DNA from: Eledone cirrhosa
Taxonomy: Eukaryota
Direction: 5' to 3'
Assembly: GCA_964016885.1 (NCBI GenBank)
Contig: OZ024742.1
Span: 105,400,001 to 105,464,000, forward strand
DNA: 64,000 nt
The notes under the pieces: model-generated
Databases searched by the model: none
Seen by the model: only the letters and a program-made list of their open reading frames with translations
What the model was told of the DNA's origin: nothing
Shown: positions 12,150-64,000 of the stretch, one piece after another
Layout of the letters: every line of letters begins with the position of its first letter
Numbering within the stretch: the first letter of the stretch is position 1
Position numbers and translations under genes: made by a program

Positions 12150-12612
12150 TGTAATCTGTCAGTGCATTGCATCTGTTCTGTGTGTGGATATAATTTTTAT
12201 CTCTATGTTCTCTAGTGTGCCCTCATGTTCTATTTTGGCATGTTGGTGAAGAACTGATTAGTTCTTTCCATCTTGGAGTTCTCGCCAGTGTTCTTTTATC
12301 CTTTCTCCTATGCTACGAGCTGTCTCACCTATGTATGTCATGTTCATATTCCTACACTGCCCCTCCATACATCTTATGCTGTATACTGCATTCCTAGTTT
12401 TACAGTTAATCTGTGGGCTTAATCTGTTGACTATACATTTTCTATCAGTGCATAGGGTTTTCTCAAAAGGGTACATTCTACTAATCAGGGCTTTTATAGG
12501 AATACTTGGCCTTTCTACTATCTTAATATTTGATTTTAATTTGTCTAGGGCCCTTCTAAATCTGTATGCTAGTTCGCCCCAGGGGGTTACAATGATGAAC
12601 ATTACATTCTGG
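12150..12612 (-). mobile_element. Penelope-like element fragment: Cys-rich linker plus GIY-YIG endonuclease
   Basis: ORF 12258-12725: CTDRKC...NCKTRNAVYSIRC...TYIGETARSIGERIKEH. Confidence 0.88.
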
Positions 12613-12757
12613 TATTTGTTGCAGCAAAGTTGACCTTTTTTGAGATTTGAACTCAGAATGTAAAGAGCTGGAAGAAATACTTCAAAGCCCAAAATTGCTG
12701 CCTTTGTGCCTATCGTAGAAATCATTATTATTATTATTATTGTTTGTTTATTTCCAG

Positions 12758-22572: not shown

Positions 22573-22582
22573 ATATATATAT

Positions 22583-22644
22583 GAACCAGTAAGACCCCGA
22601 CAGCTGAGCTCAAGCCGTTTCGACGGTCGGGGTCTTACTGGTTC
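22583..22644 (-). ncRNA. 62-nt hairpin resembling a hammerhead that lacks the CUGANGA box
   Basis: Perfect 19-bp inverted repeat. The minus strand reads gaaccagtaagacccc-gaccgtc-GAAA-cggct(tgagctc)agctg-TC-ggggtcttactggttc. Confidence 0.45.
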
Positions 22645-22736
22645 CTATTACCCACTCTACTACCTCAAGTATTGAGTACTTTGGTGCGTTATGGTTCACC
22701 TGGTTCCTTACCACACTTCCTTCGTTATATATATAG

Positions 22737-22839
22737 ATCCCAGGCCACATGCTCGATCTGTTAGGTCAAACTCGTTATAAAGAATTTTTCATTACAAATT
22801 TTTTTTATATCCCGTGAATTTCATTATAATGGAATTTCA

Positions 22840-22870
<31 letters not shown>

Positions 22871-22986
22871 CACACACACACAGTGAAATTCCATTATAAT
22901 GAAATTCACGGGATATAAAAAAAATTTGTAATGAAAAATTCTTTATAACGAGTTTGACCTAACAGATCGAGCATGTGGCCTGGGAT
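22737..22986. repeat. 250-bp near-perfect palindrome centred on (TG)n(TA)n(CA)n
   Basis: Unique arms of about 105 bp are exact reverse complements. Confidence 0.93.
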
Positions 22987-23052
22987 TGAAAAAAATTTTG
23001 TTATACTGAAAAATTTGTTATAATGGTATTCGTTATAATGGAATTTTACCTG
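22881..23052. mobile_element. Tc1/pogo-type MITE with ~23-bp TIRs
   Basis: cagtgaaattccattataatgaa ... ttcgttataatggaattttacctg, inside dinucleotide repeats. Confidence 0.65.
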
Positions 23053-23100
23053 TGTGTGTATATATATATTAAACATTTTCGCTCTACATGGCTGAATACA

Positions 23101-23384
23101 ATAAATGTAATCTGAGTTTTTTGAATATTAATAATAACATTCAATTCGTTTGCAATTATGCAAACAAGCCTCATTTTAGAAAATACTGACAGTTGGCAGG
23201 TGAACAGTGAGCTGTACTGATGAAGGGTGATACCCAGAAACATTAGTGTCTGCAGTTCTGTTTACATGCCAACACAAGAGCAAGAATGAAGGGTTCATTC
23301 TACTGACATAGCTTTAAAAATGAGGCTTGTTTGCATAATTGCAAACGAATCAAATGTTATTAATATTCGAAAAACTCAGATTAC

Positions 23385-23390
<6 letters not shown>
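23101..23390. repeat. ~75-bp inverted repeats (23101-23177 and 23317-23390) enclosing the hammerhead
   Basis: ataaatgtaatctgagttttt...caaacaagcctcatttt and its reverse complement, with a few mismatches and a 3-nt indel. Confidence 0.9.
23192..23273 (+). ncRNA. Type I hammerhead ribozyme (canonical core, GUC site after 23250)
   Basis: Helix I gctgta/tgcagt extended by gttggcaggtgaacag/ctgtttacatgccaac; CTGATGA at 23217-23223; helix II gggt-gat-accc; GAAA at 23237-23240; helix III cattagtg; GTC. The 10.1-11.1 position is an A/A mismatch. Confidence 0.85.
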
Positions 23391-23438
<48 letters not shown>

Positions 23439-41789: not shown

Positions 41790-44230
41790 TGAAAGTGTCG
41801 GTTGTAAACACTAAATCCATCCCCCGCGAAGAATGCACCTCCCAACATAGCCTCATAGTTAGTGACCTCATAGTCAGGATGAGACGTACTCGACAACAGA
41901 GGAGGACCACCCTGAGAAGAAGAATATGGAAGTTAAAGGACCCCACAGCCAGTAACAAATTTAAAAGCATACTACTTGATGCTTTTGACAGTAAGGAAAA
42001 GCAATTAGAGGCGTACAGTATAGAGGAACAGTGGGATTCCTGAAAGTTAACCTGCTGAAGGCGACAGATGAAATCTGTGGCTGGACAGACCTATAGGCAG
42101 GAGGAGAGTAACATGGGGGTGGAACAGTAAGGTGGAGGAGTCAATCAAGGCCAAAAAGCAAGCTTGGAAAGTATGGTGGGATGGGGGAAGTAGAGAACAT
42201 TATCAAGTGGCCAGGAGGGAAGCTAGGAGACAAGTGTACCTTGCAAGAAGGGAAGCAGAGGAAAGAAAGTTCAAGCATGTTCTACAATGCGAGGACCAAA
42301 AACGTGAGGTGTTCAGGAGTCAAGAAAAACCGTGATATTGTCGGGGAGAAGTGTGTCCATAATGATGATGGTATACTTGCAATCACTGATACTGATAAGA
42401 AGGTAGCTTGGAAGTGTCACTACGAGAGGCTACTAAATGAGGAGAATAAGTGGAAAAAAGATAGTCTGCCCCAAATCGATCCGATAGAGGGACCAGCAGT
42501 GCAAGTTGAAGGTAGTATAATAAATAAGGCAATCTAAGATATGAAGACAGGCAAAGCAGCTGGGCCTTCGGAGATAGTTGCTGAAATGCTGAAAGCATCT
42601 GGATCGGTGAGACACACTATGGTCTCCCGGTTAGTAAACCAAGTCATACAGAATGGGGTCATACCAAATGACTGGCGTAGCAGCATTATCATTAACTGCT
42701 ACAAGGGTAAAGAGGATGCCCTAGATAGGAGAAACTATAGAGGCATTAAATTAATTGACCAGGTCGTGAAAGTCATAGAAAAAGTTATAGCGCAACTAAT
42801 CAGAGAGCGAATTGATCTAGATGAAATGCTGTTTGGGTTTGTGTCAGGTAAAAGTACCACAGACGCTCTTTTCCTTGTACGACAACTACAGGAGAAGTTC
42901 CTAGCTAAAAGTAAACCCCTATACTTAGCTTTGTTGACTTGGAGAAAGCCTTTCACAGAGTCCCCCGCTATATTATCTGGTGGGCTCTTAGAAAACTAGG
43001 TGTTGAATGGCTTGTGAGAGCTATACAAGCCATGTATAAAGAAACAGTCAGCAAGGTTAGAATTAACAACGAATATAGTAAAGAATTTAGCGTAAAAGTT
43101 GGTGTTCATCAGGGCTCTGTCCTTAGCCCCTCCTATTTATTATTGCCCTTCAGGCTATAACAGAGGAGTTCAAGACCGGTTCCCCATGGGAACTTCTATA
43201 CGCAGATGATCTAACGCTCATAACTGAATCAATGGCTGAACTAGAGAAGAAATTCCAAACTTGGAAGCATGGCCTAGAATCAAAAAGCCTTAAAATTAAC
43301 TTTAGTCTAAGACTAAGGTTCTAGTATGTAGAAAGGAAAATAGGGCACTGGTCCCCTCTGGGAAATGGCCATGCTCAGTGTGTAGGAAAGGAGTAGGCAG
43401 AAACTCCATTTTATATCCCAAATGCAAAGTATGGGTGCATAAAAGATGTAGTGGGATCACAGGTAAACTAACTAAGAACATAGATTTTACATGTGGCCGG
43501 TGCTCAGGTGCAATAAGTAGTAGCAAGTGCCCACAGGATACTAGTTCCTTCCATTGCCCAGATGGTTCTATAGAAATAGTGGACACCTTCCGTTACCTGG
43601 GTGACAAAATCAGCAGTGGTGGAGGGTGCTCCGAAAGTACTCTAGCTAGAGTCAGAACGGGATAGAAAAAGTTCAGAGAGCTTATACCACTATTGGCTGC
43701 TAAAGATTTCTCCCTAAAAATGAAAGGCAGACTGTATGATGCCTGCATATGAACAGCAATGTTACATGGCAGATGCCTGCATATGAACAGCAATGTTACA
43801 TGGCAGTGAGACATGGGCATTGTGAGCAGAGGATCTGCACAGACTGGAGAGGAACGTAGCTAGCATGCTCTGTTGGATGTGTAATAGTAATATACGTGAA
43901 TGGCAAAGCATAAATGAACTAAGTGAGAAATTAGGAATAAGAGGGATCAGATGCTGTTTACTCGAGAGAAGACTACATTTGGATGGTCATGTGATGCGCA
44001 TGAAAGACGACAGCTGTATAAAAAAATGCAGGGCGATCAAAATAGATGGAAGCTACGGAGTAGGCAGATCCAGAAAAACCTGGGACGATTTGATAAATTC
44101 CGACCTTACACACTTACACCTTTCTAAGACAATGTCACTGGACCTAGTTCTTTGGCACTACACAGTAATACAGAAGACCCACCTTGCCTAAGTACAAAAC
44201 GAAACCTACAGTCAGTAGGCACCTCCTAAC
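41790..44230 (+). mobile_element. RTE-type LINE, 5'-truncated (end of APE, RT, PHD-like finger, C-terminus); frameshifted, 3' UTR missing
   Basis: MKTGKAAGPSEI, NYRGIKL, FGF..GKSTTDA, GVHQGSVLSP, LLYADDL, KWPCSVCRKGVG..C.VWVHKRCSG..CGRC, FRYLGD, GHVMRM. Confidence 0.95.
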
Positions 44231-44231
44231 C

Positions 44232-46809
44232 AAAAGCTAAGTAGAGGGGTTTACTTTTAGCTAGGTACTTCTCTTGTAGTTGTCGTACAAGGAAAAGAGC
44301 GTCTGTGGTACTTTTACCTGACACAAACCTAAACTACATTTCATCTAGATCAATTCGCTCTCTGATTAGTTGCGCTATAACTCTTTCTGTGACCTTCATG
44401 ACCTGGTCAACTAACTTAATGCCTCTATAGTTTCCTCTATCTAGAGCATCTCCTTTACCCTTGTAGCAGTTAATGATGATGCTGCTACGCCAGTCTTTTG
44501 GTATGACCCCATTCTGTATTACTTGGTTAACTATACGGGTGACCATAGTATGTCCCACCATTCCAGATGCCTTCAACATCTCAGCAACTATCTCCGAAGG
44601 CCCAGCTGCTTTCCCTGTCTTCATATCTTAGATTGCCTTACTTATTATACTACCTTTAACTTGCACCGCTGGTCCTTCTATTGGATCGATTTGGGGCAGA
44701 CTATCTTTTTCCCATTTATTCTCCTCATTTAGTAGTCTCTCATAGTGACACTTCCAAGCTACCTTCTTATCAGTATCAGTGAGGGCAAGTACACAGTTAT
44801 CATTACGGACACACTTCTCCCCGACAATATCACGGTTTTCCTTGAGACATTGTCTAGCAATCCTGAACACCTCACGTTTTTGGTCCTCACGTTGTAGAAC
44901 ATGCTTGAACTTTCTTTCCTCTGCTTTCCTTTTTGCAAGGTACACTTGTCTCCTAGCTTTTCTCCTGGCCACTTGATAGTGCTCTCTACTTCCCCCATCT
45001 TGCCATACTTTCCAAGCCTGCTTTTTGGCCTTGATTGTCTCTTCTACCTTACTGTTCCACCACCATGTTACTCTCCTCCTGCCAATAGGTCTGCTCCAGC
45101 CACAGATTTCATCCGTTGCTTCCAGCAGGTTCACTTTCAAGAATTGCCACTGTTCCTCTATATCGCATGTCTCTAATTGCTCTTCCTTATTGTCAAAGGC
45201 ATCAAGTAATAAGCTTTTAAATTTGTCACTGGCTATGGGGTCCTTCAACTTCCATATTCTTCTCCTCAAGATAGGCCTCCTCTGTCATTGAGTACGTCTA
45301 TTTCTGACTGTGAGGTCACTAACTACTAGGCTATGTTGGGAGGTACATTCTTCACGGGGGAGGGATTTAGTGTTTACAACAGACACTTTGTCCCGTCTTC
45401 TAGTAAGGATATAATCTATCTGGCTGGCGTGTTCCCCTGATCTATAGGTGATCAAGTGGTTTTCATGTTTTTTGAAGTTTGTGTTACAGATAGTTAGGTT
45501 ATTGGCATCACAGAATTCCAGGATTCTGAAGCCTTCCTCATTTCTATTTCCAACCCCATAGCCTCCATGGATTCCATCATAGCCATCACTATGGCCGTTT
45601 AGATCGCCAGTAATAATTAGGTAGTCGCTGTCGGTTATTTGGGAGGTAGTGTGCATTAGCGTCTCATAGAACCTGTCCTTTATAACGTCAAGTAGACCAG
45701 ATTGGGGTGCATAAGCGCATATTATTGTCACAGTAGTTTTATTTAGAACTAGCCTTATTTTAATTATTCTGTCATTTACTCTATTTACGTCGATTAACTT
45801 ATCTACCCATTTTTCAGCTAACATAATTCTTACTCCACCCAGTCCGTTGTCATTTCCCACTTAGAAAAGTTTATAGCATTTTTTACCCACGATGAATCTG
45901 GCAGACCCCCCTCTCCACCTAGTCTCTTGAATACAACAAACATCAACTTCTTTATGTTCAAGCATCTCTACAACCTCATTTGAGCGACCTTTTAATGTGT
46001 CTACGTTCATCGTACCAACTCTGAAGTTGGGAGGGTGGGATGGATGGGTTAGAGGGGCAGGGAGGGGTGTGGGAGACGGAATTATGTTGGTCATTCGTGT
46101 CTGAAATAGAAAGAGGTCTTTGTATTCTCATCCTGCAGCAGGAGGTGAATTTATCTTTATCTGTGACATTGTCATTGAATGCTTAGAGTTTCCAAAACTC
46201 CGCAGTCAACCCATCAAACAGGTCTAAACTTAAGGAGTAGTAACTGGGGCAGTAGCTTTGCTATACTGATTTATTAGGGAACTTACTAAAGCTGCTGAGT
46301 TATGATTGGACCATTAGCAATGGTGGTGTGTGGGGGTGGGAGGGCGGAAAATGGGTAACTTTAGGAGAAGGATTTGATTTAGGAAGGGTCCAACAGAATG
46401 AGACAAATCATTTAAAAACATGTAAATATTAATTGAAAATCCGAGAGAAACAAGCGGGGAATTTGAATTGTAGACTAGCATATCTCAGAGTTTAAAAATA
46501 TTGCTCATTGGGAAGACTACGGAATATGGAAGACAATGCTTACATTCTCAAATCAACAAGTCGTCCGTAAGATAATTTAGATAGATAAATTCTGTCCTTG
46601 GAAACCAGCAAAATGTATTTTATACCTGCGATGAGGCGCGGGGGGAGGGGGGTATGAGAGAAAGAGCAAAGTGATTACAAAGTTAGGGAGCGAGATGCAG
46701 GAAGGTTCTAGGATAATTAATTACTAATAATACTAGAAGGATTAGATTTAGGAGAAGGATTTGATTTAGGAAGGGTCCAACAGAATGAGACAAATCATTT
46801 AAAAACATG

Positions 46810-55180: not shown

Positions 55181-55513
55181 AATTAGATATGACTTTATAT
55201 GAACGATCATTCAAATAGTGTTAAATTATAACATAATTTGGCATACAACGCTATTAGCTGTCAGTCGAAGCAGCCGATGAAAGCAAAACATCGTTTATGT
55301 CCGTATTACTACCACGCGTAAGTGGAGTTACTTAAATGAAATTTTTTTTTTTCACGCGTTTTTTATTTTTTTTTAATTAAAGCATATAGATGTAAGTGGA
55401 GTTACTTAAATGAAAATATAGGTGGCCCTTAAAAGGGCCAAATTAGAATATACCGCTGCGTTTTTACAGTTTTACTAGTTACACATACACACACACACAT
55501 ATATATATATACA

Positions 55514-59615: not shown

Positions 59616-59663
<48 letters not shown>

Positions 59664-59664
59664 G
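58630..59664. repeat. (TA)n array with periodic TAATATG interruptions and an embedded LINE/SINE 3' stub at 59065-59133
   Basis: Direct reading. Confidence 0.95.
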
Positions 59665-59970
59665 CAAAAGTTTTATTTAAAATTGTTGGGTTACAACAAG
59701 TAAATATTTTATAACTGACAAGTTTTTGGAGTAGATATACGATATTAAACAAATGGAAACTATATTTATAAAACCATATTTATTTCATTATACATATTTC
59801 AGGGATACCATATTAAAAATTACCTCCGTTTCTTCTTTCTCTCCGTCTTTTTTCTAACTGTGCTTAACACTATAACTAAATAATTATAAACAAATCACTA
59901 CCCAGACAGCTTCCTAATATAATGGTCGCTTATAATATGGTACGTCAAAATTATTTATAAAACTGTTTAT

Positions 59971-60047
59971 ATATTGTATTTTATCTGACGAAGGCATGCC
60001 ATATTTTTAATATGGTATCCCTGAAATATGTATAATGAAATAAATAT
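59971..60047 (+). ncRNA. Atypical hammerhead-like fold with long helix II
   Basis: CTGACGA (59985) - aggcatgccatat/atatggtatccct - GAAA (60023) - tatg-t-ataa. Helix I pairs best if residue 17 is absent. Confidence 0.55.
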
Positions 60048-60085
60048 GGTTTTATAAATATAGTTTCCATTTGTTTAATATCGTA

Positions 60086-60167
<82 letters not shown>

Positions 60168-60333
60168 TGGAAAGTTATATTTAAATTGTTGGGTTACAAC
60201 TAGTAAATATTTATAACTGATATAAAAGCACTCGACAAATATTTGGAGTATATTTACAATATCAAATCAACCTTTTCAAATACAAGTCGATGTTGTTACG
60301 GTATGTCGAATCTATTTATCTATAAAACTGTTT

Positions 60334-60410
60334 ATATTGTATTTTGTCTGAGGAAGGCATAGCATATTGTTAATATGATATCCCTGAAATATATATAATG
60401 AAATAAATAT
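60334..60410 (+). ncRNA. Second, diverged copy of the atypical hammerhead-like fold
   Basis: CTGAGGA (60348) - aggcatagcatat/atatgatatccct - GAAA (60386) - tata-t-ataa. The core differs from the first copy only at the variable N7 position. Confidence 0.55.
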
Positions 60411-60446
60411 GGTTTTATAAATATAGTTTCCATTTATTTAATATTG

Positions 60447-64000
<3,554 letters not shown>

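Follow-up and report, generated by a model that had tools for sequence, protein, structure and literature searches.

Which kind of mobile element carries a hammerhead motif between long inverted arms, and does such an element spread as DNA or through RNA? This question is raised by a locus near 23 kb in the window, that is, the whole 64,000-nt stretch of Eledone cirrhosa contig OZ024742.1 analyzed here, where a first-pass annotation had described a canonical GUC hammerhead in the loop of an inverted repeat.

The stretch or part of it was present in six of nine listed runs (three studies). Four of the nine were compared: X1 and X7, labelled as organism A (separate studies, X1 possibly being the source sample and X7 consisting of RAD reads), X4, labelled as organism B (a low-depth run), and X6, labelled as organism C. 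The comparison covered 22990-23388, with the right side assessed up to 23388. The features of the window copy are as follows.

23075..23390, plus strand: whole element as present in the window, 316 nt (loose ends, depth fall, right end at (TA)n)
23075..23100, plus strand: terminal extension of the left arm, without a right-hand match in the window copy
23101..23177, plus strand: left inverted arm, containing a short palindrome at 23149-23166 (arm alignment; X4 contig)
23185..23186, no strand: site of a deletion of about 19 nt in the window copy relative to the family
23192-23273, plus strand: type I hammerhead motif (core, helices, descriptor, variation among copies)
23192-23216 and 23251-23273, plus strand: strands of helix I
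23284..23300, plus strand: 7-bp hairpin 3' of the ribozyme (predicted fold)
23317..23390, plus strand: right inverted arm (arm alignment; core-to-arm contigs)
23388..23435, no strand: (TA)n tract, right flank

Hammerhead motif

The motif at 23192-23273 has CUGANGA, GAAA, UH and helices I-III in type I order. The complete CUGAUGA/GAAA/GUC core claimed earlier was located at 23217-23223 (CTGATGA), 23237-23240 (GAAA) and 23248-23250 (GTC), with the predicted cut after C23250. Helix I, previously given as over 20 bp, comprises 22 pairs, three of them G-U, in runs of 7, 8 and 7 bp; a 2-nt bulge (U23208-G23209) lies between the first two runs and a G/A mismatch between the last two. Helix II (23225-23235) consists of 4 bp (GGGT/ACCC) closed by GAT, and helix III of 3 bp closed by TTAG. 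One extra base, A23224, sits between CUGAUGA and helix II, and a second, A23236, precedes GAAA; when G23225-C23235 is taken as 10.1-11.1, the register of Penelope-like elements (PLEs), A23236 is the sole unusual base. An extra A before G12 may slow hammerhead catalysis.

A type I descriptor (helix II at least 4 bp, helix III at least 3 bp and helix I at least 7 bp), with thresholds taken from the window copy itself, was satisfied in its strict form by none of 500 dinucleotide shuffles of the whole window. The looser form was satisfied by 11 of 500 shuffles and found three sites in the real window, the 23192-23273 motif and two near 60 kb. Rfam searches at the gathering cut-off and at E ≤ 10 returned no hammerhead among 1, 66 and 8 matches, and the hammerhead call therefore rests on the descriptor together with the variation among copies. 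The core is there, but "canonical" proved too strong a word for a motif that lacks an Rfam match and whose monomer is predicted to be inactive.

That missing match, together with a 99% perfect palindrome 115 nt upstream, would fit a motif that arose by chance, or a fold-back or assembly artefact local to the TA tract. This explanation is largely refuted and extremely improbable: no shuffle satisfied the strict descriptor, the arms differ by three substitutions and an indel, and contigs in X1, X4 and X6 run from the core into the arm.

Inverted arms and ends

Alignment of the arms (23101-23177 against 23317-23390) revealed 71 identical columns of 74, plus one 3-nt gap. The inverted repeats of the first-pass annotation do frame the motif, but the element starts outside 23101, its left end lying about 25 nt beyond the arm boundary drawn there. 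This end is sharp at 23075-23077: both X1 and X4 have loose ends there (23075/23077), plus-strand depth in X7 falls toward it (1473, 1029 and 652), and past it the agreement of the X1 loose ends drops to 0.57-0.58. The first letters of the element are a T run and CGC. The left flank also has a (TA)n, shorter than that on the right and located at 23058-23069, and the element appears to have inserted into a TA microsatellite. In the window copy, a TSD is unreadable within the (TA)n flanks, and the outer 25 nt are missing on the right.

Identical 30 letters precede 23186 in all four runs (47, 2 and 91 contigs; 2,159 reads), and the window copy has therefore lost about 19 nt. Depth arithmetic in X4 indicated that about 84% of the arm depth continues to 23077; in X1, the observed outer-end depth was 139k, compared with 122k under a rough model in which all arms reach the end and 61k if half do. 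Because these depths suggest that most arms reach the end, the family is probably about 360 nt long with arms of about 100 bp, counting the 19-nt segment and an extension on the right to match the left one, and the window copy lacks its outer right end. The extension at 23075-23100 would be either an optional PLE-like tail or an outer TIR missing from the right side.

Inverted terminal repeats, an end extension and the lack of a TSD would also describe a non-autonomous DIRS-like (tyrosine recombinase) element, and the ITR length, the 24-26 nt extension and the T-rich start fall within the ranges of DIRS1-like elements (PMC3266345). We consider this origin very improbable, since the internal complementary region is absent: the best internal scores of the extension were 12 (reverse complement) and 17 (same strand), the latter equalled by 81 of 1000 shuffles. 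A Helitron or Helentron was rejected as well; a 3' hairpin is present, but the repeated ACATGGCT-like motif is direct-oriented and not significant.

Repeat family and shared junctions

On 22990-23388 there were 9,931 contigs in X1, 3,065 in X6 and 25 in X4, and 32,778 of 12.47 million RAD reads in X7, counts to which the end of a neighbouring MITE (22990-23053) contributes. Depth in these runs does not equal copy number; for organism A, we infer thousands of copies. The X4 core contig (23193-23289, 97 nt, depth 21.1) showed no differences from the window, the X4 arm contig (23101-23173) had a depth of 37.1, and a single X4 contig spanning the junction from core to right arm (23284-23350) had a depth of 17.5, which is 68% of the total core depth of 25.8. 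Arm depth was 1.44 times core depth in X4, and left and right arms together reached 1.4-2.3 times core depth in X1. Contigs of X1 and X6 bridge from the ribozyme into the right arm as far as 23371-23387.

Because the X4 graph, the X1 arm depths and the bridging contigs of X1 and X6 agree, two arms with fixed inner junctions seem to be the usual state of the family. Whether other copies keep both inverted arms had been posed as a check, and according to contigs and depths in X1, X4 and X6 most seem to. The two origins suggested at first, an inverted pseudo-LTR (pLTR) product or a MITE-like element with a ribozyme, both still lead, but junctions common to different copies and organisms make a one-off inverted pLTR unlikely.

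A total of 3,675 X7 RAD reads leave the stretch at 23319. No proof was found of a short form ending there, and X1 depth was flat (327k, 310k and 322k at 23310, 23314 and 23320). A common T at 23320 creates an AATT site, and RAD reads start at 23265/23268 and end at AATT sites (the enzymes being deduced from read starts and ends); the exit reads are thus explicable by ligation chimeras or size selection. Self-comparison of the window revealed no second or tandem copy of the element, and no goes-back joint of unit length was present among 15 of 126 joints listed; tandem loci may lie elsewhere.

No family member was found in the viral scans (2, 0, 2 and 2 loci), the prokaryote genome scans (0 and 7 loci) or the metagenome scan (2 loci). 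L005-L015 were rejected as relatives because they are pattern matches only, of 18-21 nt; the phage contigs L001 and L002 have only a 25-nt core region in common with the element, and L003 and L004 only the core. In L001 and L002, two related viral contigs, hammerhead-like cores lie at 1001-1025, directly after an ORF.

Variation among copies

Among the 40 of 147 difference rows listed, 14 variable positions fell within 23186-23319, none of them on the 15 core positions. All four changes in helix I keep pairing (p ~0.10 if transitions), and variable sites were rarer in the ribozyme (5 of 82) than in the spacer behind it (9 of 46; p = 0.035), again among the rows listed. Outer-arm depth relative to core was 0.12-0.34 in organism C versus 2.1-2.3 in organism A. 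From one organism to another, the ribozyme seems to be kept better than the outer arms, a comparison in which AT-rich, indel-bearing arms are harder to align and could imitate divergence. Because the core is spared, helix I pairs are kept, the spacer is more variable and the arms are poorly matched in organism C, the pattern suggests, short of proof, that selection acts on RNA structure. A comparable test on cricket satellite DNA showed such conservation (PMC2837043).

The changes common in organism C at 23290 and 23294, whose linkage was read from the X6 loose-end consensus behind 23289, would jointly preserve a pair of the 23284-23300 hairpin, replacing A-U by C-G. In organism C, a substitution at the pair 23138/23356 accounts for 96% and 95% of depth on the two arms and is thus close to fixation on each, which calls for some homogenising step. 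Each arm contains an 18-nt palindrome (23149-23166 and 23328-23345), and the inner arm part is the best matched in organism C; these palindromes resemble paired octamer motifs and are a possible promoter element.

The A/A at 10.1-11.1 had been suspected as a lesion that might reduce the activity of this copy. A23224, A23236 and T23243 are not lesions of the window copy, since the dominant X4 contig carries all three, and loose ends in X6 and X7 retain the A after CUGAUGA; judging from these copies, the family commonly carries A/A at the helix II base.

These data bear on whether the element is a MITE with TIRs of about 100 bp, mobilised as DNA by cut and paste, that acquired its hammerhead from a PLE or a retrozyme and carries the ribozyme as a passenger or an anti-silencing aid. 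Its size and junctions are fixed, its left end is sharp, most arms reach the outer end at the arm-to-core ratios given above, and the window contains no tandem copy, all as expected of a MITE. However, organism C matches the ribozyme best rather than the outer arms, the listed changes are compatible with core and helices, and the window copy lacks both the outer 25 nt on the right and a readable TSD. The terminal GGANNNNG of Spy transposons (PMC4122938) is also absent from the element despite an A-rich left flank consensus. We regard the captured-hammerhead MITE as doubtful but a serious candidate.

Predicted folding of monomer and dimer

All fold energies given here are predictions that exclude tertiary contacts. 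The 290-nt fold had an energy of -140.7 kcal/mol (z = -17), a z that the arms alone would give. The proposed rod with the ribozyme at its tip was partly recovered: the arms pair, but the ribozyme is one of two branches of a terminal multiloop, and helix III is not formed in the lowest-energy fold. CUGAUG at 23217-22 pairs with CAUUAG at 23241-46 (P > 0.99), both in three element contexts and in the isolated ribozyme; the active fold lies 6.2 kcal/mol above the lowest-energy monomer fold. A single copy is thus predicted to fold into an inactive state.

The helix III strand had been read as a palindrome with one change, but as RNA 23240-23249 self-pairs at all 10 positions, including two G-U pairs, with a predicted -8.8 kcal/mol. 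The double hammerhead (-70.4) was predicted to be nearly isoenergetic with two monomers (-71.2), and the unconstrained dimer fold, at -79.0, was lower than the double hammerhead.

Other observations in the window

A PLE-type remnant lies in a TA tract at 59635-60450. Its two direct units, spaced by about 363 nt, each contain a minimal hammerhead-like core (59985 and 60348); an inverted truncated copy lies in front of them, with 59735-59820 matching 60003-60088 at 100%. On the minus strand, 12258-12620 encodes a GIY-YIG endonuclease fragment (PF01541, E = 0.006, below the cut-off), a likely PLE remnant, and 55400-55444 scores as a histone 3' UTR stem-loop at the Rfam gathering score. LINE-like RT and endonuclease fragments at 41792-45389 form a 1.15-kb inverted duplication of 90% identity. 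The histone stem-loop and the LINE-like and GIY-YIG fragments together mark the window as animal DNA.

Upstream of the element, 22737-22986 forms a 250-nt palindrome, 99% perfect, which is either a recent fold-back or an assembly artefact: a small TIR element (22881-23053), probably pogo/Tc1-like, has its first 105 nt or so duplicated in inverted orientation across a (TG)(TA) tract. Between TA tracts at 22579-22648 lies an imperfect hairpin whose minus strand has GAAAC and a short stem but lacks CUGAUGA.

Origin of the element

We favour, at a probability of about one half, the reading of the element as a non-autonomous, Penelope-derived fold-back unit that was frozen and amplified as a unit. 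Its source would be the end of a PLE, namely a solo pLTR with its own inverted, truncated copy. Once fixed, the fold-back unit would likely have been copied whole via RNA by a Penelope reverse transcriptase acting in trans. The transcript would fold as a rod in which the catalytic core pairs with the helix III strand, and because the core is paired in the monomer, full-length RNA would survive as a template, whereas a pair of copies might form a double hammerhead and be cut. That the element is transcribed and cleaved, that it travels as RNA and which partner serves it are our inferences.

This reading draws on the marks of the ribozyme, the layout, the apparent selection on RNA, the loci L003 and L004, the PLE remnants in the window and the folding. 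PLE hammerheads are marked by a base between positions 9 and 10.1, a G10.1-C11.1 pair and a palindromic 15.2-16.2/loop 3 (PMC4209133). All three are present in the element, as A23224, as G23225-C23235 and as the strand that self-pairs at 10 of 10 positions with G-U allowed. As for layout, an inverted 5'-truncated copy often accompanies PLE insertions, as does an optional tail of 30-40 bp, usually on one end only (10.1101/2021.04.23.441226), and this tail is located between two internal RT start sites (PMC11167929). In Adineta, one inverted-pLTR unit may have yielded a second identical insertion; pLTRs in cis were enough there for a host gene to be moved in trans (PMC3846280). Uncleaved RNA was the main PLE template in vitro (PMC11167929).

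The metagenome scan for an A-flanked helix II returned two loci, L003 and L004, from an unrelated genome. In L003, the A-flanked helix II core follows the end of an ORF and precedes CCCTAA repeats; this ORF had no Pfam or Atlas match that would mark it as a PLE protein. L004 is a fold-back of an L003-type end with the same core at its centre. On the reverse strand of L004, two fold-backs lie side by side (1554-1927 and 1951-2072), the second being centred on the hammerhead core that is common to the telomere-repeat-tailed end of L003.

L004 is also the kind of structure expected if the family consisted of ordinary 5'-truncated insertions of an autonomous PLE, whose arm was rebuilt each time at a preferred switch point, so that inheritance is only apparent. 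The inverted-pLTR layout known from the literature fits this model, as does the idea of self-priming, and the near fixation of 23138/23356 on both arms in organism C implies the homogenising step it would provide. It is quite unlikely nonetheless, given the 30 letters shared before 23186 by all four runs, the one X4 contig that holds the core-to-right-arm junction at 68% of core depth, and the absence of upstream-ORF loose ends among 24 of 994 listed.

Several points weigh against a Penelope-derived fold-back unit. The near-symmetrical TIRs of about 100 bp with sharp ends that the depths suggest resemble a DNA transposon, and the PLE tail is usually one-ended, whereas the extension seems to be on most arms. 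The dimer fold at -79.0 falls below the double hammerhead, and insertion of an anole PLE in vitro did not require hammerhead cleavage (PMC11167929). No PLE related to the element by its ends was found within the window. We also entertain, as unlikely yet plausible, a MITE-shaped family with symmetrical TIRs of about 100 bp in which the hammerhead is selectively kept. It would be either a fold-back retrozyme, spreading as a rod RNA whose monomer stays uncut and which cleaves only when two copies pair, or a ribozyme-using DNA transposon; either version, if true, would add a new architecture to the mobile elements that carry ribozymes.

Significance and comparison with known systems

In animal genomes, PLE pseudo-LTRs and tandem retrozymes are the settings in which hammerheads have been described. 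Repeat finders would class a fold-back form that is fixed and abundant as a MITE, and retrozyme pipelines that rely on tandem units, such as that of 10.64898/2026.07.22.740005, would overlook it. If the family moves by way of RNA, some "MITEs" would be retroelements, and its copies, which would number in the thousands, would be natural products bearing on the formation of PLE inverted structures and the purpose of their ribozyme. An abundant inverted-arm element around a hammerhead was not described in the open papers searched, and the available text of PMC10886601 and PMC8490949 contains nothing on such a form. The family may be catalogued in Repbase/Dfam as a MITE or an unclassified repeat.

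Like MITEs and fold-back DNA transposons including Spy (PMC4122938), the element has long inverted arms, a sharp end, a small size, a high copy number and an A-rich left flank. Unlike them, its best-conserved part appears to be an internal ribozyme, and it is without the Spy terminal motif.

Type I hammerheads are known in PLEs and retrozymes (PMC7761336; 10.64898/2026.07.22.740005). Animal non-LTR retrozymes are likewise non-coding, 150-450 nt long and low in GC, and carry a type I hammerhead with a real helix III (PMC7229834; 10.64898/2026.07.22.740005). Retrozymes, however, are head-to-tail repeats or solo units thereof, whereas the element is a solo unit with long inverted arms closing it. 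The base of helix II is a U-U mismatch in the axolotl HHR_Amex2, whose monomer cleaved to 22% in an hour and whose dimer cleaved much better (PMC7229834).

PLE hammerheads share with the element the extra 9/10.1 base, the G10.1-C11.1 pair and the self-complementary helix III strand (marks in PMC4209133), but the element differs in its 22-pair helix I, its 4-bp helix II and the extra A between 11.1 and G12. Inverted-pLTR insertions of endonuclease-positive PLEs (PMC3846280; 10.1101/2021.04.23.441226) likewise have a hammerhead in a direct part of about 200 nt, an inverted 3'-end copy in front and TA microsatellite flanks, and the unmatched extension of about 25 nt in the window copy is a further likeness. 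In contrast to them, no ORF was found in the element, and its extension seems to be on both arms in most copies. The remnant at 59.6-60.45 kb has the geometry of the element, which differs from it in being a fixed family; the inverted form, as set against inverted-pLTR insertions at large, is here the dominant and fixed structure.
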